The position numbers and the translations under genes were made by a program. Positions 4,315 to 63,536 of a stretch of 64,000 bases of DNA are shown here, one piece after another; the first letter of the stretch is position 1, and every line of letters starts with the position of its first letter. The stretch is from a virus, in the IMG/VR virus record IMGVR_UViG_3300031987_000007, positions 1,704 through 65,703 of that record. One strand, given 5' to 3'. The notes under the pieces were generated by a model. That model searched no databases. It saw only the letters and a list, made by a program, of their open reading frames with translations, and had not been told where the DNA came from.

Positions 4315-4550
4315 TGGGCGTCAGCAGTCTCCATGTACTGAACCAGGGCCTCATAACCACCGATGTGATCTGAGTTGTGGTAAACCTGTGGCACGGTCTT
4401 GAAACCGTTGGCTCTCATTTTTTCACGGGCGTCCGGGTTTTCATTGATATCAACCGTGTTGATAGCCAGTACCCCGTTTTCACGAAGTAGCTCAATGGCT
4501 TTGGTACAGAAGGGGCAACCCGGTTGGGTGTAAACGGTAAAGCTATTCAT
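4311..4550 (-). CDS. Glutaredoxin
   Basis: CPFC active site, TVPQV, HIGGY. Confidence 0.92.
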   Translation of the reverse strand: MNSFTVYTQPGCPFCTKAIELLRENGVLAINTVDINENPDAREKMRANGFKTVPQVYHNSDHIGGYEALVQYMETADAQ

Positions 4551-4869
4551 ATTGAAGGATTCCTATTTTGACCATGGATTCAAGGTCTTCGGTGTACATG
4601 GTGGCGGGTGTGGTTTCACCAGTCTCCGGATCGAAGCCGGTGATCAGCAACTTGCCCACCAGTTCTTGGGGATACCAGGACGTAATGGTGACTTGCTTGC
4701 CACTGAACAGTGTCAGAAGGCCTTCGTCGTCAGCCCAGCAGGCGTGGTACCGGTCTGGGTAACCGGCGCCTGTGACGGTGCTACAGCCGATGAGGGCGTA
4801 CAGGGATTGAAGCGAACCATCGTGTTCAACTTCCTGAACGCCCTCCGTTGTTATAAGGATTGCTCTCAT
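4543..4869 (-). CDS. DUF3846-like protein
   Basis: MRAILIT..SLQSLYALIGC...WADDEGLL...LVGKLLITG; start reassigned to ATG 4869. Confidence 0.65.
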   Translation of the reverse strand: MRAILITTEGVQEVEHDGSLQSLYALIGCSTVTGAGYPDRYHACWADDEGLLTLFSGKQVTITSWYPQELVGKLLITGFDPETGETTPATMYTEDLESMVKIGILQYE

Positions 4870-5074
4870 ACGAAATCTCCGGGTGGAGAGTGACTGGGTA
4901 TTCTGGTTCGCCTTCCCGGGAGCCTTTGTAATACAGCTCCGCACGGTCGGCGAGAATGTCATCAAAGGTGATGCCTTCTTCCAGAACGCAGTAATACAGG
5001 CCCGTCTCCTTGTGCCGGCACAGTGGCCGGTCAAAGGAATCTGGGGCTTCACAGATGAAGTCACTGGGTTTCAT
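4826..5074 (-). CDS. Hypothetical protein
   Basis: ATGA overlap with polymerase stop; natural composition. Confidence 0.55.
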   Translation of the reverse strand: MKPSDFICEAPDSFDRPLCRHKETGLYYCVLEEGITFDDILADRAELYYKGSREGEPEYPVTLHPEISYESNPYNNGGRSGS

Positions 5075-7728
5075 GCAGCTTGTTTCTCCTGTTGTTGCTC
5101 GGCGAGTTTGGTTTGAAACGCCGCGCAGACAGCACGGATCTCCTTCTGGTCGGCATAGTTGGGAATGGTCATGTCAGAGGCCCAGGTGGGGTAGAACACA
5201 TCGAGTTCCGCACCCAGTTTGACGGTCGGGTGTTGGATCTCAGGGAGTTCCTGCCACTGCATGGACTTGATCAACTCACGGTTGACCCACTCGACCACTT
5301 CAATGTTGTCGCGGATCAGTAGATAGATGGCGTCATGGATCATGGCCACGGGTTTAACATCGTGACGGAACCGGGACTGCCAAACCTTCTGCATGAACTC
5401 GTTACACGCCCGGTTGGTCAGTAAGCCGTAGGACTGGCCCAGCGCGTTGCCGGCTGTGCGTCCTTCTGCCTCTGCCTCGTAGGGTGTGTTCGACTTCCCG
5501 CGAATGGTCATGCCCAGTAGTGGGGTTCTCAGACGCAGTCCGAAAGCGACCGTGACAAAACCATCCTTGGCGGCCTGGTCCAGCTTGTCCTGTACCCACT
5601 TGTCCGAGACCTCATAGAGAATGTGGTACTGCTTCTCGATCTGTTGGGCAGCCTCCTTGGTGAAGCCCAGGTTCTTGACCAGGGTGTGCCAGGTGCCTTG
5701 GTAGGTGAGGGCGAACGTTGGACCTTTGCTGGCGTCCCGGATGGACTTGTACAGCTTCTTGATCTGGTTCACCGAATCGGGTGTCTCCACAATGTCCGGG
5801 AACTTCTCTGGCCAATAGGTGAAGGCCCGCAGACTGTGTCCATCGTACCCTTCGGTGTAGACCTTCAGCTTGTTCGGGTCTTTGGTCGTCAGGGCTGAGA
5901 TGTAGTCTTCCAGTGAATTGAAATCCGCCCCGGCAAACAACCAGCCCTTCGGTGCTTTGAAGCACGACTTGATGAGCTTGCCATAGGTGGATCCAGATGG
6001 AATGTTCTGCAAGTTGGGGTCAGAGCTGGACAGTCGACCGGACTTGGTGCCACCTAAGTTGAACGAACCATGGAGATGAACAACGCCATCCCCTTTATCA
6101 ATGGCCTTTTCAAAGGCCGGGATAAAGGATGAGAGGATCTTGGCGGCTTGAGAAAAGCCTACCAGGGCCTCAATGATCTCCAGGTTGTCTGGATCATCAG
6201 TGTGGTGAACCAGCTTCTCCAGGGTCTCGCCCCCGGTGGCCGGTTGTTTGGCCTTGGTTTTGTCAATAACGGGCAGGCCCATTTCCTCATAGAGCAGCTT
6301 CTGGAGCTGGGGCCCACTGTTGGGATTGAAGATTTGCTTGGGGAAATGCTTACGGTCCTTGGGCAGAATCTTGTCCGGGTTCTTGGCCTTGTCACGGCGG
6401 TCGGTGTAGTCCTTCTCCCAGGCTGTGTAGGTCATGCGATCTTCCAGCCGGGCGATGACACCCTTGCCTTGGAAAGCCGCCCTGTGGCCTTCGAGAATGG
6501 CCTCCAGCTCTCTTCGTGCAACCTGTACCTGATCGGGGTCCAGTGGCATACCGGACAGCTCGATCTGGGTAATGGTTTTCTGGCTCGGCATCATGAGGTC
6601 GTAATACAACGCCTCTTGCTGATCCTGAACCATGATGAGGTAATAGGTCTCATACACCCAGTTGGTACACAGGCCGTCAATCAGGTTGTAGCGAAGCAAC
6701 TTGTCCAAGGGGATCTTGCGAACGTCCTTGATGTTGTCGCCCATGCCGTAGTTGCCGGCAAACTCGTGTGCCAGGTCTTTCAGCGACAGGCTGTTGCCCG
6801 CGGTGGTGTTGGTGGCCAGGTAGGCAATGATCTTGGTGTCGTGGATTCTCTGATGCAGGATGTCCAGCCCGGTCAGGAGACCTTCGTTATCCAACAGGTC
6901 TTTCATCCACAACTCGTAGATCAACACCTTGGTGTCATACGTGCTGTTGTGCCACTTCAAGGTGCCTCGATAATTCTCGAAGAACGTCTTGAGCATGGCT
7001 TTGACTTCGGGATTATGAACCAGACGGCCATGGTAACCACCACGCGGCTCGTCCATAGGCACGTAATCCACCGGGAACGCGATGCCTTCGTGGTTGTTCC
7101 AGGCAAAGGTAATCGACGCCACACCGGCTTTGTCGAACTCCAGTGAACCTGCTTCGATATCACAGGACAGCTCGGGATAATCCATGAGCTTTTCAAGCCA
7201 CTTAGCAATGTCCGCAGGGGTCTGGGGGTAGTCAGCGTACTGAATAACATCCTCACCCAGCGGCTGGTAGCTGCCTTGTACTTCGTCGATCAGGGTCTGA
7301 ACCGACATGGTCATCTTGGGCTCGTTGCCCGGGTCGTACAGCAGGGATTTGTGGTTCACCCCCAGAATGACCTTCATGTGTTCATAGCCCGGGTACTTGC
7401 AGTCCAACACATAGCCCAGGTTCTGTTGGGCCTGTTGGCACTTGGTCAGTACCTTGAAGTAATTGGCATCGGCCACGTACAGGTACTCCACCCCGACGCT
7501 GTCCAGTGAGGGCAGGAGATCGTCGAGGTAGGTTTTGATGTACTTGACCGGGGCTTTGTTGCTGGCGTTGTAAGCCAGGGTCATACCAATGATCTGGCCT
7601 TGGGTGATACCCCGCTTCAGCATGGGATTGACATAGTTATAAATCAATTCGTCCTTGTTGAAGGCACTGGCTTTAACCAGCAAAGCAATGGGATATTTGT
7701 CGGACTCTTCAAAAATGAGGTGTCGCAA
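5071..7728 (-). CDS. DNA polymerase family A (N4 gp39-like)
   Basis: Exonuclease DIE motif, GGTKSGRLSSSDPNLQNIP, motif A ADFNSLE, motif B RDASKGPTFALTYQG, motif C IHDA. Confidence 0.97.
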   Translation of the reverse strand: MRHLIFEESDKYPIALLVKASAFNKDELIYNYVNPMLKRGITQGQIIGMTLAYNASNKAPVKYIKTYLDDLLPSLDSVGVEYLYVADANYFKVLTKCQQAQQNLGYVLDCKYPGYEHMKVILGVNHKSLLYDPGNEPKMTMSVQTLIDEVQGSYQPLGEDVIQYADYPQTPADIAKWLEKLMDYPELSCDIEAGSLEFDKAGVASITFAWNNHEGIAFPVDYVPMDEPRGGYHGRLVHNPEVKAMLKTFFENYRGTLKWHNSTYDTKVLIYELWMKDLLDNEGLLTGLDILHQRIHDTKIIAYLATNTTAGNSLSLKDLAHEFAGNYGMGDNIKDVRKIPLDKLLRYNLIDGLCTNWVYETYYLIMVQDQQEALYYDLMMPSQKTITQIELSGMPLDPDQVQVARRELEAILEGHRAAFQGKGVIARLEDRMTYTAWEKDYTDRRDKAKNPDKILPKDRKHFPKQIFNPNSGPQLQKLLYEEMGLPVIDKTKAKQPATGGETLEKLVHHTDDPDNLEIIEALVGFSQAAKILSSFIPAFEKAIDKGDGVVHLHGSFNLGGTKSGRLSSSDPNLQNIPSGSTYGKLIKSCFKAPKGWLFAGADFNSLEDYISALTTKDPNKLKVYTEGYDGHSLRAFTYWPEKFPDIVETPDSVNQIKKLYKSIRDASKGPTFALTYQGTWHTLVKNLGFTKEAAQQIEKQYHILYEVSDKWVQDKLDQAAKDGFVTVAFGLRLRTPLLGMTIRGKSNTPYEAEAEGRTAGNALGQSYGLLTNRACNEFMQKVWQSRFRHDVKPVAMIHDAIYLLIRDNIEVVEWVNRELIKSMQWQELPEIQHPTVKLGAELDVFYPTWASDMTIPNYADQKEIRAVCAAFQTKLAEQQQEKQAA

Positions 7729-55132: not shown

Positions 55133-56104
55133 TCATAGTTTGAGAGAACCGTCCGCGATCAGGGCATCCTTCTGGGTGCAAACTGGGAACCCGGCGCAGT
55201 ATTTACAGGCCATGACTTCGCCAGGGATTTCCCGGACGATGCCTTTACCTTTACTGGCCAGATGGGCATAGGCCCCGGCGCGGTCGGTTTTGAAATCTTT
55301 GGTGGCCCGCTTGGAGTCTTCTTTGGCGTAATACTTCCAGACGGTGTCGGAGCGCCACAGATCCTTGTCGGAACAGTGGGGAATCTCTTCCTCGGGCGCG
55401 TCCTGGTATTTGGCAACCTGAGCCAGTTTGTGAGACACAAAGGCTTCGGTTTCATCGACGGACAGCAACGGGATGCGTTTTTGTGGCGTCGGTGAGTTGG
55501 GGTAGCTGGGGTCGTTGGCAGCCCGGCCCGGCATGAAGTCGGTCAACAGGAAGTTAATGGCGATCTCATCGGAGGTGATGATTTTCGGATTGAGCCAACG
55601 ATAGATAGAGCCCTGTAGCTTGTAGTCTTCGTCCTTGGTGCCTTTGGTGAACATGAACACAGAGGTGGATTTGAAATCTTCCACCCGGCCTTCTGCCACG
55701 AAGTCAAACTTGCCAGAGACGCGCTTGCCCTGAATGTCCTTGTACGACCGGATTTCCAGGTACACCGGAATGTCACCCTTGGCCAGCTCGTCGGGATTGG
55801 GGTTGACGCGGATCTTCTTGATCAGACCGTTGGGGTAGCCCAGGTCTTGCATGGCCTGCTTGTAGTTGTTGAGCCAGGCCCCCTCAATGGAGTCGTGCAG
55901 GGCGGTGCCCATACGAGATTTGAACAGGCCGGCAATGTCTACCAGCGATTCGGACTGAGGCACTCGGCCTGCCAATACCAGTTGTCGTACTGGTTTGATC
56001 AATGCGGTGGCACTGACTGTGTCCGGGTCGTAATCGTATTTATCCGTCGCTAAAAATACAGCAACGGACAGGGGTACGTTTGTCCCGTTGAGATACTTAC
56101 GCAT
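55133..56104 (-). CDS. PD-(D/E)XK exonuclease (N4 gp42-like)
   Basis: RMGTALHDSIE, VSGKFDF...DFKST, QGSIYRWL, C.YC...C.Q. Confidence 0.9.
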   Translation of the reverse strand: MRKYLNGTNVPLSVAVFLATDKYDYDPDTVSATALIKPVRQLVLAGRVPQSESLVDIAGLFKSRMGTALHDSIEGAWLNNYKQAMQDLGYPNGLIKKIRVNPNPDELAKGDIPVYLEIRSYKDIQGKRVSGKFDFVAEGRVEDFKSTSVFMFTKGTKDEDYKLQGSIYRWLNPKIITSDEIAINFLLTDFMPGRAANDPSYPNSPTPQKRIPLLSVDETEAFVSHKLAQVAKYQDAPEEEIPHCSDKDLWRSDTVWKYYAKEDSKRATKDFKTDRAGAYAHLASKGKGIVREIPGEVMACKYCAGFPVCTQKDALIADGSLKL

Positions 56105-56155
56105 AACAGGTTCCTGATGTGTTGTGGGTAAATAAATAACGGGGTTGGGTACCCG

Positions 56156-56377
56156 TTACTTTTTACGGAAAGTGAATGTGATCGTAGGGAAGAGAATGAA
56201 ACCAAACAGGTTTAGGTATTCCACTTCAGCGAGGAAGTTCCCGGGTGCTGTGGGGTAGGTTACTTTGCCCGTTAATAAACGGTAGGAATACACACCCGGC
56301 TTACAACCTGGTTTGGATTTAACCAGAAATAACCCTGTCGAGAATCGGGGCAGGTATTTATAAATTATTGTTGGCAT
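56156..56377 (-). CDS. Hypothetical protein
   Basis: Fills the gap between neighbours; AT-rich. Confidence 0.35.
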   Translation of the reverse strand: MPTIIYKYLPRFSTGLFLVKSKPGCKPGVYSYRLLTGKVTYPTAPGNFLAEVEYLNLFGFILFPTITFTFRKK

Positions 56378-56772
56378 TCCAATGCTCGTAGTTCCATGAC
56401 TTCCATGCGACCACCAAAGTGTCCGACTTTCTCTGCATTACGCAGATGACTGTCGCCAGGTTTACCATTTCCAATCCGCATCTGGCCTTTACGCCATAAT
56501 GCTTTGAAGGCTTCCCCTTCTTGGAAAGTCATCTGGAAGTGTTCAATCAGGTCTTCACACTCGGCGCTGTACGGCTTGAGCCGTTTGGGCTGAGTGATCT
56601 CGGCAACCCAGTAGTCATTGTCTTTACCGGAAGATGTCTGCAAAACAGTCCCTGTTTTTTGTTCAAAGCCCATCTCATTGTCATTGCTTGCTTGTTTACT
56701 TAAACAAGAAGGGCAGTAATCAGTTACTCCACTTACAGCATGAGAACAGGAAATCGTTTTACATTGGGTCAT
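56365..56772 (-). CDS. DUF3310-like protein
   Basis: ECEDLIE...MTFQEGEAFKALWR...AEK. Confidence 0.7.
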   Translation of the reverse strand: MTQCKTISCSHAVSGVTDYCPSCLSKQASNDNEMGFEQKTGTVLQTSSGKDNDYWVAEITQPKRLKPYSAECEDLIEHFQMTFQEGEAFKALWRKGQMRIGNGKPGDSHLRNAEKVGHFGGRMEVMELRALECQQ

Positions 56773-56847
56773 GGATAACCTTGGTTGAATGAGTGGTGGG
56801 TTTATTATTTAAACAGAAATGTGATTAAAAGAGAACCAACTAAAAGA

Positions 56848-57210
56848 TTAAACCAGTCCAGTAATATGAGGCATGGCAAATTTAACCGCCCGTACATATC
56901 GCTGAGCTTGTCGTTTTTCCAGGCCAGTCATTTTACTTACTTCGCGTGTGTTAATGGTTTCAACAGATTGAAGGATGTTGTAAAGCCGGTTCACACTTAA
57001 TGGGATTGCTTGGTTTGAATCTATATTGGCCGCACCATAAAGCACATCGGCAATCGGACACCCGTAATCGTGAGGCTGTTTAAACTGCATTTGCTGGATA
57101 AGGGTGTTGGTAATGTTGGTGGCCCCTTTCTCTTTGCGGTTATCACCAGTGCCGGCGTACCGCACCCGGTCTGTCCGGGCTTTCCCCAATCGAGCCTTGA
57201 GGTGAGGCAT
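56848..57210 (-). CDS. Conserved hypothetical protein with C-terminal HTH
   Basis: INTREVSKMTGLEKRQAQRYV. Confidence 0.65.
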   Translation of the reverse strand: MPHLKARLGKARTDRVRYAGTGDNRKEKGATNITNTLIQQMQFKQPHDYGCPIADVLYGAANIDSNQAIPLSVNRLYNILQSVETINTREVSKMTGLEKRQAQRYVRAVKFAMPHITGLV

Positions 57211-57259
57211 GTCGTCAATACTGGGTATTTCCGTAATAGAATCAGCTCCTTATCTGTGA

Positions 57260-57766
57260 TTAATTGGTATGCCCGTAGTTACCATGTAATTCCTGGCTTG
57301 CTTGGCAGTAGGCATAATGGGCTTCTTTAGGTGTGTCGAACTGCCCAAGGTATCGGGTCTTATTGGATACCTGAATTTGTGCAAACCATTTCTGATTGGT
57401 CTTGCTCCAGGAAACGCCCTTGAACCCTGATGTATTGTTCAAAGGTTTTCGTTGGTTGTGGGTGTTCTCGACATTGGTACACTCTCGTAAGTTTGACCTG
57501 GTGTTATTCAACCCATCATGGTTTTTGTGATCAACCTGTTGAGATGTAGAGGTATCAAGAATGACTCGGTGCATTAGAATCATCCCAGGTTTTCCATCAG
57601 CCTTTCGGGCTGTGCGGGCAGCGTATACAGTGCGTTTGGTGACTGCTGCAAACCAACTGTAGTCTTTAACTAAGTCAATGTCGGTAGCATCTATTCTTGC
57701 TATATATCCCCTGGTGAGTGGTACATAAGCAAACTTCCCTATTTTTCTGATTTTTCGTGGTCTCAT
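57260..57766 (-). CDS. HNH-AP2 homing endonuclease
   Basis: MHRVIL..VDHKNHDGLNNTRSNLR; NTSGFKGV..W.AQI..YLG.F.T..EA..AY. Confidence 0.9.
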   Translation of the reverse strand: MRPRKIRKIGKFAYVPLTRGYIARIDATDIDLVKDYSWFAAVTKRTVYAARTARKADGKPGMILMHRVILDTSTSQQVDHKNHDGLNNTRSNLRECTNVENTHNQRKPLNNTSGFKGVSWSKTNQKWFAQIQVSNKTRYLGQFDTPKEAHYAYCQASQELHGNYGHTN

Positions 57767-57906
57767 ATCAAGTCCTTGTTTTTAATATGAAATAAGGTCT
57801 ATTCAAAACGACTTATAGAATAGGGGGGAACACCCCCGAGGCCCTGACGGACCCCGGGTGCGTCCCCTGAAATCTTCTCGGCGTTGCCTCGAACATTTCC
57901 CTGACA

Positions 57907-58152: not shown

Positions 58153-60471
58153 TTAGAAGCTGATCTCGCAAGCACCCCCGGCACAGGCCTGGGCGCCCAT
58201 GGTGCCAACGTCCGTGTACTCCTGTTCCCCCATTTCCTTGGTGAAGTCGATGGGCTGAATTTCCCGGGCAATGGTCTCCCACTTGTGCAGTAGGTGAACG
58301 TCCTTGAGGCATTCAGTCATGGTTTGCATGGCGTGGCTTACCAATTCAGCGCCTGGGTCTACACCCATGAAAGAGCCATCCTTAAAGAATTGCTTTTCCG
58401 CAGGTAGGAAGTTGTTACGTGCGAACTTCTTGGCTCGACGTACCCAGTCCCGCTTCAGGAGATCGTGAGAGCCATGCGGGCTCAGATCCTTGCCATCATT
58501 CATGGCCACAGAACAGGCGTTCCACAGGTCACCTGAGAAGGCGTGAAGCCCATCCACAACCAGTCCAGAGGCGAGGATAGCGGCAGCACCATAGGTTTCC
58601 TGGATCTGCTTGGCTGTCTTCACTTCAGTGAACGGGGATTGCGGGTAGGCCTTGTCACCGGATTCACTCATCAAGCTGATGCCGGCAAACCACTGACGGT
58701 TCTCCCAGATGTAATCGAACACCTCGTCCCAGTCATCCACCGAAATGGTGTTGGATACGTTGTGACGATTGCGGGAGTCGGTACATAGGTCTTCATTGGT
58801 TCCGTATTCAATCCAGTTCTGTTGAGCCAGCTTGACGAACTCCAACTGCTTCACACCCTGAAGGCTGTCTTTGTAGATCGAGCCTTCGTCCGAAACGATG
58901 GGGAAGCTGACAATGCGATCGGTCCCGTTGGGATTCCAGACACTGGTTTCGACCATGTCGGGGTTCTGTTTCTCCAATAGGGCCAGGGCGCCGTCAGCCT
59001 CGTTCATTTGCACGTTACGGAAGTACCGGGGTGAATGTTCCCCATGAATACCAGAGGCCGTGCCGAGCAGCACAGAGGCGTTGCCGGAAGGCTTCACACA
59101 AGTGGTTCGGGCAGCCGGGTTGATACCGATGAGATGAGCCACTTCCTTATTCACATTGCGGACAATGTGGGCACCGGTTTGCATGTTGAGCTTGTCGAAC
59201 AGTACGTCCGGGCTATTCATCCAACCGGTGATCGAGACGCCAATGAGAGCTTCTCTCTCAACGATCTGGCGGGTGGCATCTGTGAGGTAGGTGAAGTTGG
59301 TGTAACCGGCCTGGAGTGTTCCCAGGATGGCACCAGCACGGCAAGCATTGAAGAACTCATCGGGTGTGTTGCACATGCCACCGTTGATTTCGGTGAGGTT
59401 GCACATCTGGAAACCAGACTGACCATCTTCGGTCACGGGCAACATGCCGATCTCAACACAGGGGTTGTAGCAGAACTCGATGTTATCGGTCCAGACGAAC
59501 CCGGGCTCACCAAAGCCTTTGACGGACTCCTTGATGCCTTGCCATTCCTCATAGGTCGTGGTGGCTCGGTCCAGTACCACGGAGTTGTTGGAGCGCCCAC
59601 GCTGAGGGTTGTCGATGAACCAGTTATCGGTCTTGGCGTTCAGCATCTCTTTGTCGTCTTTCGAGAACATACAGATGGTGGCGCTTCGACGGACACCGCC
59701 TGACAGCACGGCATCGGCCATGTGCATGACAAAGTCATAGGCGTTGATCGGGCTCAGGACATTGGTCTGTGTCTTGACGATACCGTTGAGCAGGGTTTCA
59801 CACTTGATCAACGAGGCGCGAAGACCGTCCGGACCGGGTGCCTTGAAGCCACCTGAGATGTATGAGCCTTGCGGACGGATCTGGGAGAAGTCATACGACA
59901 CATGCTTACCGGAGAACTCCGGGAAAGGGGCATTACGTGGGTCAGTGATGAAGCTGGAGATCAGCACACCAAACGCATCCGACCAGCCTTCAATGGAGTC
60001 GGGTACCACAAAGGTCTTGGCTTCCTGGCTGCGGGGGTGGATGGTAGGGAGTTTGTTGATGTGATGTTTCTGTACGGAGAAGCCGACACCACAGCCACAC
60101 AGCAGCAGGTACATGGCTTCCTGGAAGAACTCAGGGCGATCCAGATGCGAGGCACTGCAGTTGTACAAGCGGCCTTCGTGTTGGAATATCTGAGGCCCAC
60201 CAAATTGCAGAGCCCGTTGGGCACCCAGTACAGACTGGTTCGCGTAATGATCCTCTGCAAACTGGATCAATTCGTCCAGCTCCGGAGACATTACATGCGC
60301 GTATTTATCTCGGTGCATTTGCATGACACGGCCGACAGACTCTTTCCAGGTCTCATAACGGTCATTGTCATCCAGCCACCGGGAATACCCCATGAAGAAT
60401 TTACTTTCCGACATCATTTCTTTGCCGGCCAGTAAACGATTCTCTACAGGGAGTGTTACAACATTGGACAT
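58153..60471 (-). CDS. nrdJ: Class II (adenosylcobalamin-dependent, monomeric type) ribonucleotide reductase
   Basis: RLYNC, GGVRRSA, NPCVEI, CNLTE, TCVKPSGNAS, HNVSNT, C-terminal CAGGAC. Confidence 0.92.
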   Translation of the reverse strand: MSNVVTLPVENRLLAGKEMMSESKFFMGYSRWLDDNDRYETWKESVGRVMQMHRDKYAHVMSPELDELIQFAEDHYANQSVLGAQRALQFGGPQIFQHEGRLYNCSASHLDRPEFFQEAMYLLLCGCGVGFSVQKHHINKLPTIHPRSQEAKTFVVPDSIEGWSDAFGVLISSFITDPRNAPFPEFSGKHVSYDFSQIRPQGSYISGGFKAPGPDGLRASLIKCETLLNGIVKTQTNVLSPINAYDFVMHMADAVLSGGVRRSATICMFSKDDKEMLNAKTDNWFIDNPQRGRSNNSVVLDRATTTYEEWQGIKESVKGFGEPGFVWTDNIEFCYNPCVEIGMLPVTEDGQSGFQMCNLTEINGGMCNTPDEFFNACRAGAILGTLQAGYTNFTYLTDATRQIVEREALIGVSITGWMNSPDVLFDKLNMQTGAHIVRNVNKEVAHLIGINPAARTTCVKPSGNASVLLGTASGIHGEHSPRYFRNVQMNEADGALALLEKQNPDMVETSVWNPNGTDRIVSFPIVSDEGSIYKDSLQGVKQLEFVKLAQQNWIEYGTNEDLCTDSRNRHNVSNTISVDDWDEVFDYIWENRQWFAGISLMSESGDKAYPQSPFTEVKTAKQIQETYGAAAILASGLVVDGLHAFSGDLWNACSVAMNDGKDLSPHGSHDLLKRDWVRRAKKFARNNFLPAEKQFFKDGSFMGVDPGAELVSHAMQTMTECLKDVHLLHKWETIAREIQPIDFTKEMGEQEYTDVGTMGAQACAGGACEISF

Positions 60472-60495
60472 ATTGGTTCCTTACAAGGGTGAGAT

Positions 60496-60519
60496 AAAAA
60501 GAGCCAGGTAAACTGGCTC
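60496..60519 (-). terminator. Rho-independent terminator between thyX and nrdJ
   Basis: Minus: GAGCCAG-TTTAC-CTGGCTC-TTTTT. Confidence 0.8.
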
Positions 60520-60565
60520 AGGGGTTTAATACATTACTGAGGAACAACAATGTCTGCGGGATTAT

Positions 60566-61747
60566 TTAATCAACAAGTGCTGCCCAACTTACGGGGAACA
60601 ACGGGCGGATAATGCTATCCCATTGTTCTGCCAGTTCTTGAATCTCAAGTTGAGCATGGGCATCGCTGCGTTGAATGTACGCATTGGCCCAGGCATACAA
60701 CGAACCCGTTACCCAGTAAGTCGTGAGCATGGATTGAGGCAGAACCATACGGGCTTGTTCAGGCGAATAGCCGTCTTGGATCATGTTCTCATATAGATTC
60801 TTGGCGCTTTCAAGAAGCCCTTCGTAGGTATTACTTTTGCTCGGAACGCACCCTTTATACTTTAGTAGTACGTGTTCAGCCATCTTGATCTGTTCGTCCC
60901 GGCTGGCATCACTTTTCATTGAATTGGCCCGGTTACTGATAATCTCAACATTACCGGGAACGTAGTCCTTTGTTGAGTCTTTTCGATCAAATGATGGGCT
61001 GTCTGGTTGAATCTTCCCCTTACCAAGTGAGTAGTCTAACTTGACCCCTAGATATGGGCAGTACTCTGGAAAGTCGAAGGTATCAAAGTCGAGTGACCAT
61101 TCTCGCTTACCCTCCCTTTTTACCCTGGCTTCAGCATTTGAGAAACATGCTTTATAGGGATTACGATTCCTGTTGGTGTAGTGATATTTACATTCATCAG
61201 AACAGTACTTCTTTTCTCTCCCACCACCCTGAGCACGAACGTTCTGCGTGGTTTCTTTACCGCACACCGGACAAAAGCCTTTAACAAATTCCGGGGCAGG
61301 TAGTTTTGTTGTGCCTGAGCCTTGCTTAATATTCCCTTCAGGGCGTGTGCGCCACTCATCAGGAATGTGAAACTCAGGCGTATCATCCACATACCTACGA
61401 GAAACTTCATTGTAGGTGAAGCCAACGCAATGCTTGAAGCGCTGACGAGCCACAAAGATCGGGACGGTTTCCCGCATAGTGATCATGCAGTGGCTGAAGG
61501 GTGTCCAGTGGGTGGGCATATTCTTGGCCCACTTCAAAGCCTTTTCGACCTCTAAGGTAGATAAACCGCCTTCAACAAGGGGTTTAACTGTGTTGTCCCA
61601 ATCAGACTTCATACAGCCACGGGCCAGGAATTGAATTAAGCCTTTGTCTTTTTCAGTCAGTTCATTGGACACAACGGAGAATGAAACTCTTGCGGCATTT
61701 ACGCACGTAAGGTCATTGCCCATGTGATCTAAGTATTCGGCTTTCAT
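60566..61747 (-). CDS. thyX: Flavin-dependent thymidylate synthase ThyX with in-frame nuclease insertion
   Basis: NAARVSF, HWTPF, PIFVARQ.FKH, NEVSRRY, PEQARMVLPQS, HAQLEI; about 155-aa insert after KQGSG. Confidence 0.92.
   Translation of the reverse strand: MKAEYLDHMGNDLTCVNAARVSFSVVSNELTEKDKGLIQFLARGCMKSDWDNTVKPLVEGGLSTLEVEKALKWAKNMPTHWTPFSHCMITMRETVPIFVARQRFKHCVGFTYNEVSRRYVDDTPEFHIPDEWRTRPEGNIKQGSGTTKLPAPEFVKGFCPVCGKETTQNVRAQGGGREKKYCSDECKYHYTNRNRNPYKACFSNAEARVKREGKREWSLDFDTFDFPEYCPYLGVKLDYSLGKGKIQPDSPSFDRKDSTKDYVPGNVEIISNRANSMKSDASRDEQIKMAEHVLLKYKGCVPSKSNTYEGLLESAKNLYENMIQDGYSPEQARMVLPQSMLTTYWVTGSLYAWANAYIQRSDAHAQLEIQELAEQWDSIIRPLFPVSWAALVD
60833..61300 (-). mobile_element. Zn-finger plus HNH-type endonuclease domain inserted in thyX
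   Basis: CPVCG...KKYCSDEC; CPYLG...SPSFDRKD...YVPGNVEIISNRAN.MK; boundaries approximate. Confidence 0.75.
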
Positions 61748-61829
61748 AAGTACCTCTGGATTATTTGCGATAGGCAAATAGGGATTGTGTAGAATCGCTG
61801 GAACAGTGATCTACAAGGTTGGTTTATTT

Positions 61830-63536
61830 ATGTCTACTTATTGCGGTACAAGCGGGGGATTAGGGCCACTACCCAGTGATCCGGACAGTAACCTGATATT
61901 AACGGCAAAGCCAGCCTTTGGTGGAATTGATGTTACCTGGACTTATCCGGAAACCAATCCACAAGCTGTGGCTCATACCATTATTTTCCGTAGTACCAAT
62001 GCTGACCCAGCAACAATGATTAAACATCAGATTGCTACGGGTGATTTCTACTACGACAAAGTGAACCCAACCCAGAACATTGAATACTTCTACTGGGTTC
62101 AGTGGGTGTCTATTAACGGGACGTATGGGGATATTGTCGGGCCGGTGTCTGCAATAGCTCGGCCAACAGTTTCCCAGACTCTGGAGATGCTGACCGGTCA
62201 GATCGAAGCAGGTGCTTTGGGACAAGCCTTGCAAGAGGAGATGGCAGGCATTGATCTGAACCGGGAAGCGGTGCTGCAAGAGCAACAAGCCCGCATCATG
62301 GCGTGGGGGGATATGGCCTTTCAGTTCAACCAACTGGCTCTTGAAGGTGAGCAGACATTGGCTGCGTTGCAGCAGGAGTCTACGGCTCGGTTGGACGAAG
62401 ACACGGCCCAGATAAACCAGATCAATATACTTGGGGCCCGGGCGGAAGATAACGAAGCCATGTTGCTGGATGAGCAACGACTGCGTGCGGACGCCGACCA
62501 GGCCATGGGGGAGGATTTGAGAATCCTGTCTGCCTCCATGGGCATCGAGTCCCAAGTGTTCTTCCAGCCGGCCGCGCCCATCCCATCGAATCCTGGTGAT
62601 CGTTGGATCGACACGGATAACGGGAATGCCCCGAAATTCTGGTCAGGCACGGAGTGGGTAGCGGACCCGGAGATTACTGGAGCGGTGTACCGTCAGGCGG
62701 AACCGCCGGTAAGTCCGGTGGCTGGTGATGTGTGGTTTGATTCCAATGACGAGGACAAGGCCTATCAGTTCCTGGATGACGTGTGGGAGCCGTTGAGTAT
62801 TTATGACGGGAACCTGATCAGCGCCGCTGTCCAGAACCACAACAACACGCGTATCGGTTACTGCATGATCGCCGGGGCGCCGTCACCAGACATTGGCTCC
62901 CAGGCAGTATGCAAAGCCAACGGCGGAACCTGGTTGGTTCAGCAGGCCCTGGCGGACGCTGTGAAGGGTATCCAGATTACGGACTCTGACGGTGACAGTG
63001 CCAATGTTGAGGAACGGATGGTCAGTTACAAGAACGACATTGGGCAGTTGCTCAGCGAATACACCGTCAAGGTGCAGACCGACACAAACGGCAACAAGAT
63101 CGTCGGAGGGTTTGGCCTGACGGCTGATGGCGCCACTGTAGAAGCTGGGTTTGATGTGGACCGGTTTTGGGTCGGTAAGCTGGGGAACAAACGGTTCCCG
63201 TTCATTATCGACGCTAATACCAATGAAGTGTTCATGGATGAGGCGGTGGTTCGCCACTTGACCTTCACCAAGTTACGGGACGCTGAAGGCAACTTCATGG
63301 TGGCCAATGGCAAGTTGAAAGCTCAGTACCTGGAAGCAGGTGATCTGGTTTCCCAGTCCACCGTTACAGTCGGTCCCACCACGGGCAAGACCTTTGAGTT
63401 CAAGGTGGATGGTTCACACCAACTCATTGCCAAACGTACCGATGAAGTCGGTTCAGGGGGCGTTGTTTACAATGCCGATGGGATCTCCGTTTACGACTCT
63501 GCGGGTGTTCTGCGAGTAAAGGTAGGAAAGCTATGA
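61830..63536 (+). CDS. Tail fibre/host-specificity protein (lambda J C-terminal-like)
   Basis: FnIII-like N-terminus, coiled coil, YTVKVQTD.NG..IVGGFGL, PFIID, RVKVGKL end. Confidence 0.75.
   Translation: MSTYCGTSGGLGPLPSDPDSNLILTAKPAFGGIDVTWTYPETNPQAVAHTIIFRSTNADPATMIKHQIATGDFYYDKVNPTQNIEYFYWVQWVSINGTYGDIVGPVSAIARPTVSQTLEMLTGQIEAGALGQALQEEMAGIDLNREAVLQEQQARIMAWGDMAFQFNQLALEGEQTLAALQQESTARLDEDTAQINQINILGARAEDNEAMLLDEQRLRADADQAMGEDLRILSASMGIESQVFFQPAAPIPSNPGDRWIDTDNGNAPKFWSGTEWVADPEITGAVYRQAEPPVSPVAGDVWFDSNDEDKAYQFLDDVWEPLSIYDGNLISAAVQNHNNTRIGYCMIAGAPSPDIGSQAVCKANGGTWLVQQALADAVKGIQITDSDGDSANVEERMVSYKNDIGQLLSEYTVKVQTDTNGNKIVGGFGLTADGATVEAGFDVDRFWVGKLGNKRFPFIIDANTNEVFMDEAVVRHLTFTKLRDAEGNFMVANGKLKAQYLEAGDLVSQSTVTVGPTTGKTFEFKVDGSHQLIAKRTDEVGSGGVVYNADGISVYDSAGVLRVKVGKL

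Follow-up and report, generated by a model that had tools for sequence, protein, structure and literature searches.

A PacI-like HNH nuclease domain in frame within a phage ThyX, a candidate splicing-free homing cassette

Described systems and the thyX insert

Homing endonuclease genes are thought to survive in essential genes by way of self-splicing introns or inteins, and the sites at which they home typically code for invariant motifs; for thymidylate synthases, the T4 td intron with I-TevI is a comparable homing case. In-frame endonuclease insertions that are free of splicing are rare, the ShiLan domain and the fungal rps3 fusions being known examples. Here, we describe an insert of this type in the thyX gene of a viral DNA stretch of 64,000 nucleotides (nt; positions 1,704 to 65,703 of IMG/VR record IMGVR_UViG_3300031987_000007, the whole of which is called the window below). 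The insert encodes a zinc ribbon and a PacI-like HNH domain and is read through as part of ThyX. Homing by a thyX-specialised, splicing-free endonuclease cassette that is expressed as a domain of ThyX is, in our judgement, the probable explanation, and no comparable ThyX-HNH fusion was found described in a search of the literature.

The ShiLan domain in the DNA methylases of mycobacteriophages (Arsenault, Gosselin & Gogarten 2025, PMC11855218) is likewise a read-through insertion in a phage enzyme gene; it has no intein or intron features, is distributed disjointly, as homing elements are, and codes for an HNH endonuclease. The HNH of ShiLan, however, is encoded in another reading frame and needs separate translation, with a loop or hairpin as the in-frame product, whereas the nuclease of the ThyX insert is in the host frame and forms part of the host protein. 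Host gene (methylase versus thyX), HNH subfamily and phage group differ as well. A hidden out-of-frame nuclease of the ShiLan type is not applicable here, given that the nuclease motif is in the thyX frame. The LAGLIDADG fusions of mitochondrial rps3 in Ophiostomatales, credited to Gibb & Hausner 2005 and Sethuraman et al. 2009 in PMC7902536, are also in-frame host-gene fusions with no splicing element of their own. They involve another nuclease family and a eukaryotic organelle. The ThyX insert is internal and placed in an enzyme loop.

Selfish HNH elements in frame inside thyX at a conserved motif are known as the ThyX inteins of cluster C1 mycobacteriophages (PMC5050341). These have Hint splicing domains, whereas the present insert is devoid of a splicing domain and follows the motif KQGS. 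In a closely related phage contig (L006), a homing endonuclease targets the same gene family, but as part of a group I intron that is RNA-spliced (RF00028), sits between ARQR and FKH, contains in-frame stops and carries a separate open reading frame (ORF) of HNH_3 type. PacI (PDB 3LDY, 3M7K) shares with the insert the motif D-R-x-D-S-x-x-G-Y-x-x-x-N...N-x-x-K-S, the HNH variant and a zinc-binding Cys4 element. In contrast to the insert, it is a stand-alone, homodimeric type II enzyme of 142 amino acids (aa) that has two Cys4 sites, whereas the insert possesses a single Cys4 ribbon, differently laid out, and only one Cys of the second site; the sequence match (E 0.57) is not significant alone.

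Anatomy of the insert and absence of splicing elements

The thyX gene with its insert is a single uninterrupted ORF of 393 aa on the minus strand, with its ATG at 61747, its TAA at 60566-60568 and no internal stop codon. Alignment of protein and DNA with insert-free relatives, a check proposed in an earlier note made from the letters of the window, fixed the junctions at ...IKQGSG/T146 and T307/Y308EG..., and the insert thus lies between G145 and Y308. It spans 162 aa (aa 146-307; 486 nt) and replaces a loop about 12 residues long, after which the ThyX helix YEG... resumes. The nearest insert-free ThyX is P0021 (locus L007), with a scaffold that is 90% identical. The features of the gene and its insert are the following, all on the minus strand of the window.

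60566..61747, minus: whole coding sequence of thyX with insert, 393 aa plus stop (ORF and translation; Thy1 and phrog_85 matches; homologues share the MKAEY start)
60827..61312, minus: in-frame insert, aa 146-307, zinc ribbon and PacI-like HNH domain (alignment junctions; phrog_3322 at 1e-23; dN/dS 0.031)
61190..61273, minus: Cys4 zinc ribbon, C159, C162, C182 and C186 (four Cys kept in 55 of 58 ThyX inserts; weak likeness to an eL24-type ribbon)
60914..61060, minus: HNH-type beta-beta-alpha core, C230-P-x-L-G...D254 R255 x D257...Y262...N266...N275..K278 (family-wide invariance; alignment to PacI 91-134; PacI as top fold match)
60854..60901, minus: C-terminal helix, aa 283-298, of the insert, for which self-pairing about a two-fold axis is predicted (models; contacts 290:290 and 287:294 in the homodimer prediction)
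60758..60826, minus: ThyX helix aa 308-330, which co-varies with the insert, as a co-converted or co-adapted flank (identity comparisons with L009 and L007; control pairs; predicted dimer interface)

The earlier note had described complete N- and C-terminal ThyX halves separated by about 155 aa. Thy1 (PF02511) indeed matched in two stretches (7e-33), with the insert between them and both halves of the fold covered, and the measured 162 aa are close to that estimate. The CPVC/CSDEC cysteines, taken as a zinc finger, and the nuclease motif CPYLG...SFDRKD...GNVEIISNRANSMK were found in the insert as described, and without a stop codon. The insertion point was examined in a collection of 58 insert-bearing and 146 insert-free ThyX sequences, the 57 carriers other than the window having been gathered from ENA, JGI, Logan and NCBI assemblies. 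Over these 204 sequences, the segment from S144 to Y319 was bimodal in length, with 19-43 residues in 146 and 145-175 residues in 58. The insert has therefore entered a loop that naturally varies in length and directly follows the invariant motif, in agreement with the variable segment after KQGS named beforehand. The motif K141 Q142 G143 S144 is invariant in the family, KQxS is also present in the solved ThyX 6J61, and the insertion site adjoins the codons of KQGS, as is typical of homing sites.

In PHROGs, the insert matched phrog_3322 ('endonuclease', 1e-23) and phrog_1035 ('endonuclease VII'). An exhaustive, profile-free search with the insert by itself collected 13,337 representative proteins at E ≤ 1e-3, many of them free-standing and 110-200 aa long and many others with two matched stretches. 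Some of the larger members carry helix-turn-helix or Myb-like DNA-binding domains (Pfam), and the larger members checked for the same domain in other enzymes showed such modules or no Pfam domain. A Pfam nuclease domain was seen in none of ten family members scanned. In deposited genomes of cultured phages the relatives of the insert are free-standing genes, several of which are annotated as endonuclease or HNH endonuclease, and the phage genome of the window holds no second copy of the domain. Many PacI-like members of 250-400 aa (P0126-P0268) have two stretches of the nuclease motif and may be tandem duplications, that is, single-chain pseudo-dimers.

The motif C-P-x-L-G...S-x-D-R-x-D...G-Y...N...S-x-x-A-N-x-x-K is invariant throughout this family; it is complete in the ThyX insert and shared by free-standing members. 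The model of the insert (predicted local distance difference test, pLDDT, 87.9) shows a beta-beta-alpha fold, its two strands and the helix after them lying at the motif. PacI was the top fold match, with a Foldseek probability of 0.94, an E of 0.02 and a VIA Z of 6.3 over 96 residues, and was followed by McrA, Gme HNH, Cas9 HNH, Hpy99I and T4 endonuclease VII. Residues 91-134 of PacI align motif for motif with the family profile (DRxD..GY..N..N..K). Sequence searches of the insert against the PDB gave non-significant matches only, to a zinc ribbon (eL24) and to PacI.

PacI is an active HNH enzyme in which Asp and Asn bind the catalytic metal and the general base is a Tyr (PMC4081073). By alignment, the counterparts of the metal ligands in the insert are D254 and N275 and that of the general base is Y262, the roles being transferred from PacI. 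The five residues D254, Y262, N266, N275 and K278 are all kept in 57 of the 58 ThyX inserts (Y262 and N275 in 58, D254 in 57). The exception is L012 (3001-4092), where D254 is replaced by N and K278 by L. At the position of the canonical HNH general-base His the insert has R255, and the 58 inserts hold R (52), Q (3), K (2) or H (1). The Arg of this DR pair is also found in free-standing members and in PacI. Since Arg is the norm in the family and in PacI, the domain is filed as PacI-like rather than as a canonical HNH, and R255 is not taken as decay. The nuclease motif recognised in the earlier note hence stands as an HNH-type domain, based on the PacI fold match, with the refinement that the canonical His is missing, as is normal for PacI-like members. 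Like that of L012, the insert of L011 (3001-4029) is more divergent and lies at the same site, and its DR pair has the Arg exchanged for Lys; the inserts of P0145 and P0167 are without zinc ribbon. Together with L012, these three are candidate decaying copies.

These features bear on whether the domain could be a catalytically silent DNA-binding or structural module that persists as a neutral or structural insertion. An Arg where canonical HNH enzymes have their general-base His, the single Cys left of the second PacI zinc site and the weak sequence match to PacI would fit such a module. The DR form is, however, the usual one in the whole family, also among free-standing members, and it is shared by PacI; the near-total conservation of D254, Y262, N266, N275 and K278 is hard to explain without catalysis, and the lateral spread described below would require another driver. 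We consider a silent module improbable, and the insert is plausibly active as a nuclease, to judge from its conserved residues.

No element that could remove the insert was detected. A Pfam scan of the protein gave no Hint or intein domain at E ≤ 1, Thy1 being the sole match. The insert starts with Thr146 and is followed by Tyr308 at the +1 position, neither junction has a conserved nucleophile, a conserved Asn at the end of the insert is missing, and homologues differ in the residue that precedes the C-terminal junction (N, H, F, K, R, S). Furthermore, the predicted fold, composed of zinc ribbon, beta-beta-alpha unit and helices, fills the 162 aa and leaves no space for a splicing domain. With no Hint domain, neither junction nucleophiles nor terminal Asn, and the fold otherwise accounted for, an intein was ruled out. 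On the RNA side, Rfam gave no intron at E ≤ 10 in window 60000-62300, whereas the same scan recovered, as a positive control, a group I intron (RF00028, 100 bits) at a different site in the thyX of the N4-like contig L006. Most group I introns have a stop codon just past their 5' junction (PMC3073962); the thyX frame is open throughout the insert, with no stop after the 5' junction. A group I or group II intron was ruled out by the Rfam result with its positive control and by the open frame. The absence of intein hallmarks and of a group I core, both noticed from the letters beforehand, is borne out by these scans. No conserved internal start codon was seen from which the nuclease alone could be expressed; a single GTG, in CPVC, occurs near the beginning of the insert, and it is not conserved in L009.

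An unrecognised intein-like, intron-like or translational-bypass mechanism could in principle remove the insert and leave a mature ThyX without it, and removal mechanisms are common at this locus, phage thyX being host to inteins (PMC5050341) and to the group I intron of L006. Against this stand the lack of a Hint domain, of conserved junction nucleophiles and of a conserved terminal Asn, the occupation of all 162 aa by zinc ribbon, HNH core and helices, and the lack of an Rfam intron and of the stop codon expected past the 5' junction for most group I introns (PMC3073962). The purifying selection on the insert in the ThyX frame argues against it as well, and we give such removal almost no credence.

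The thyX of L006 is interrupted (4322-5150) after ...VARQR and before FKH/MVGFTYNE by a genuine group I intron, recognised as RF00028 at 4830-5091, with a homing-endonuclease ORF of 223 aa and HNH_3 type (4388-5059). The ribonucleotide reductase (RNR) gene beside it (L006:5672-8827) encodes 1051 aa versus 772 aa in the window; the extra stretch of about 290 aa near the N-terminus begins with Cys, ends in ...GN/C and looks like an intein.

Distribution and movement among thyX alleles

On a tree of the scaffold only, presence of the insert required at least 23 state changes, and branches with good support impose at least 8 of these. The clade that contains the ThyX of the window has 100% support, and in it four carriers are dispersed among 79 insert-free sequences. 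A single vertical origin with all carriers as one clade was rejected by an approximately unbiased (AU) test (delta lnL 599, p-AU 1.8e-8). This test cannot separate gains from losses, and the histories of insert and scaffold were therefore compared directly. Each rejects the tree of the other, with delta lnL 1212 and p-AU 7e-6 for the scaffold data on the insert tree and delta lnL 1552 and p-AU 1e-62 for the insert data on the scaffold tree. A sporadic distribution among otherwise similar host alleles, together with a history incongruent with that of the host gene, is a mark of homing endonuclease genes, and this is what the tree comparisons give for the insert.

Individual pairs illustrate the incongruence. 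The inserts of P0011 and P0023 are 85% identical on scaffolds that share 49% identity. The insert of the window is 92% identical to that of L009 (84% at the nucleotide level), whereas the N-terminal scaffolds of the two are only 72% identical; the scaffold of the insert-free L007, in turn, is 91% identical to that of the window. Helix 308-330 follows the insert in this respect, with 95% identity between the window and insert-bearing L009 versus 32% with insert-free L007. Among pairs with a scaffold identity of at least 0.9, this helix is 45% identical between carriers and insert-free sequences and 76% identical between insert-free sequences. The insert-bearing P0004 and the insert-free P0109 differ in 1 of 300 nt over codons 1-100, in 10 of the next 60 nt (all synonymous) and in 28 of 90 nt up to the insert, and are divergent from there to the 3' end, which places a recombination breakpoint about 135 nt upstream of the insertion site. 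The cassette has thus moved laterally between thyX backgrounds.

Within the nuclease family the ThyX inserts form nearly one clade (2 changes; 47 sequences in a clade with 97% support), which has the look of one thyX-specialised lineage in lateral spread among the thyX genes of many uncultured phages. The contigs of the carriers that were examined are of about 41 kb (with primase-helicase and PolA), 64, 73 (N4-like) and 83 kb, and the gene neighbourhoods differ. The same arrangement was absent from cultured or deposited phages, with none of 1068 INPHARED records that have a ThyX match covering at least 80% of the query, and a megablast of the 8-kb neighbourhood returned nothing.

In the mechanism we favour, a PacI-like HNH nuclease with an N-terminal zinc ribbon sits in the variable loop after KQGS, where it would be translated as part of a ThyX that remains functional. 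The fusion protein would cut a target site in the insert-free thyX of co-infecting related phages, and repair off the insert-bearing allele would copy the cassette together with flanking thyX sequence into the recipient, giving super-Mendelian inheritance. The ThyX oligomer may pair two nuclease domains, as in the PacI homodimer, so that both strands are cut. The earlier note proposed at its core a selfish element that dispenses with splicing and is tolerated as a domain inserted in the frame of ThyX. This is supported by the lack of intron and intein, the free-standing nuclease relatives, the patchy and incongruent distribution, the mosaic alleles and the purifying selection. Of the three pay-offs that the note listed, only the spread of its own thyX allele gains indirect support from the evolutionary pattern; the cutting of competitor phage DNA and a coupling of DNA degradation to dTMP synthesis would be further possibilities.

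Several observations weigh against homing. Everything 3' of codon ~100 is foreign between P0004 and P0109, and ordinary phage mosaicism could also give this pattern. A pair of filled and empty alleles with near-identical flanks on both sides was not found among the collected ThyX. For helix 308-330, which is part of the predicted dimer interface, the co-variation could stem from structural co-adaptation instead of co-conversion. The resemblance to PacI is modest in sequence (E 0.57) and in structure (Z 6.3), and the insert lacks the second zinc site of PacI. RNA run X10, an oligo-dT sediment metatranscriptome, contained over window 60400-61900 only insert-free thyX relatives, with 85-95% likeness. 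Finally, only 1 of 58 copies has lost core residues, and a selfish cycle of invasion, decay and loss predicts more wrecks. Apparent joints in X10 were rejected as splicing, since other letters lie between the two sides and the joints are replacements.

The near-absence of wrecked copies indicates that the nuclease may benefit the phage, and the main rival explanation builds on this. It holds that the domain, although of homing origin, is now selected by the phage and spreads mainly by ordinary recombination and selection; it might cut competing insert-free phage or host DNA, or stabilise or regulate the ThyX oligomer. The five core residues, intact in 57 of 58 copies whose inserts have diverged to ~35-45% identity, speak for this exaptation, as do a dN/dS that is lower in the insert than in the scaffold and the position of insert helices within the predicted dimer interface. 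A precedent is the intron-encoded endonuclease that aids the competition of co-infecting phages (PMC11620839). On the other hand, 79 of the 83 sequences in the nearest clade are without insert; as most close relatives do without it, the insert is dispensable. The distribution and the tree incongruence moreover fit a self-propagating element. Exaptation, which partly overlaps with the homing interpretation, therefore appears to us rather unlikely as the main account, and a thyX-specialised homing cassette remains the preferred one.

If so, thyX would show at scale a third route, in which a permissive loop beside a catalytic motif retains the nuclease as an additional domain in frame, and the nuclease still moves between alleles. 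The 58 insert-bearing ThyX, on contigs of 41-83 kb, make this splicing-free route directly testable. The comparison also defines a large family of PacI-like HNH phage nucleases without a Pfam model, a possible source of new site-specific enzymes, and it is a caution for annotators, in that a long 'ThyX' need not carry an intein.

Directly at the thyX start codon of two related contigs lies a free-standing HNH_3 gene (L094:962-1504, L096:1016-1504). The HNH_3 alleles are strongly divergent and the first 300 nt of thyX virtually identical, and this short identical tract is bracketed by two different nuclease elements.

ThyX scaffold, predicted dimer and genomic setting

The remaining features of the gene, again on the minus strand, are these.

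61753..61757, minus: Shine-Dalgarno-like AGAGG, 5 nt upstream of the ATG (direct reading of the sequence)
61313..61747, minus: N-terminal ThyX scaffold, aa 1-145, ending in the invariant KQGS(G) and including S116, R117, R118 and Y119 (alignments with invariant columns; match to solved ThyX chains)
60569..60757, minus: C-terminal ThyX scaffold, aa 331-393, with R333, R360 and Q366 invariant (alignment; second Thy1 stretch)

Both halves of the scaffold matched thymidylate synthase families in PHROGs, and the ThyX profile matched 21 solved ThyX sequences. S116, R117, R118, Y119, R333 and R360 were invariant in an alignment of 72 ThyX sequences with and without insert; the positions S116, R118, Y119, R333 and R360 we take to be equivalent to S88, R90, Y91, R147 and R174 of T. 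maritima. The predicted full-length model matched T. maritima ThyX with a probability of 1.0 and a target-normalised TM of 0.64, the ThyX fold being kept. Between the window and insert-bearing L009, dN/dS was 0.031 for the insert, read in the ThyX frame, and 0.127 and 0.046 for the two scaffold parts, rough values, as dS is near saturation between these alleles. At the level of codon comparison, these ratios indicate that the insert is under strong purifying selection and translated in the ThyX frame, and that the scaffold is under purifying selection too, with the ThyX motif residues kept alike in carriers and non-carriers.

Prediction of two copies of the protein gave an ipSAE of 0.59 versus 0.00 for the best control; among solved structures, 20 of 30 homodimers and 1 of 23 monomers came up to the mark. 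Three runs agreed to at least 95% and the partner pLDDT was 80-81. The predicted interface comprises ThyX residues, the insert helix 283-298 and the co-varying helix 308-322. The model suggests that the ThyX oligomer pairs two nuclease domains. It may, however, largely reflect memory of solved ThyX tetramers, which again counts against our interpretation. A more far-reaching possibility, which we advance tentatively and regard as doubtful, is that the nuclease depends on the quaternary structure of its host: ThyX oligomerisation would join two PacI-like domains for double-strand cuts, by way of helix 308-330 of ThyX, inherited along with the insert, and of the insert's own C-terminal helix, and yield a bifunctional enzyme that excludes insert-free competitors. 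If this were true, the host enzyme would serve as the dimerisation scaffold of the nuclease, a third way for in-gene homing endonucleases, and one that is free of splicing.

Three runs, each from a different study (freshwater, gas well and a coded organism, the last of 2025), have contigs with the identical gene and both junctions, and at most one of these runs is the source of the window. An assembly chimera was ruled out on the basis of these three runs and of the 57 other insert-bearing ThyX sequences.

The virus record that contains the window is 73.6 kb long and 98% complete. It encodes an ORF of 3580 aa, the size of the N4-type virion RNA polymerase, and the phage is therefore considered N4-like. 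The gene is AT-richer than its surroundings, as stated in the earlier note, and the insert most so: the GC content is 0.472 for the gene and 0.448 for the insert versus 0.523 in the window as a whole and 0.544 in the RNR gene next to it, and GC at third codon positions (GC3) is 0.448 for the insert versus 0.671 for RNR. The RNR gene (phrog_367) lies downstream of thyX. Its product of 772 aa (window 58153-60471, minus strand) matched PHROG 367 at 2.6e-95 and had no Pfam match at E ≤ 0.001, as would a divergent RNR outside the Pfam models. A second low-GC stretch, with 0.39-0.49 versus about 0.55 on both sides, is located a few kb from thyX at window 56050-57850.

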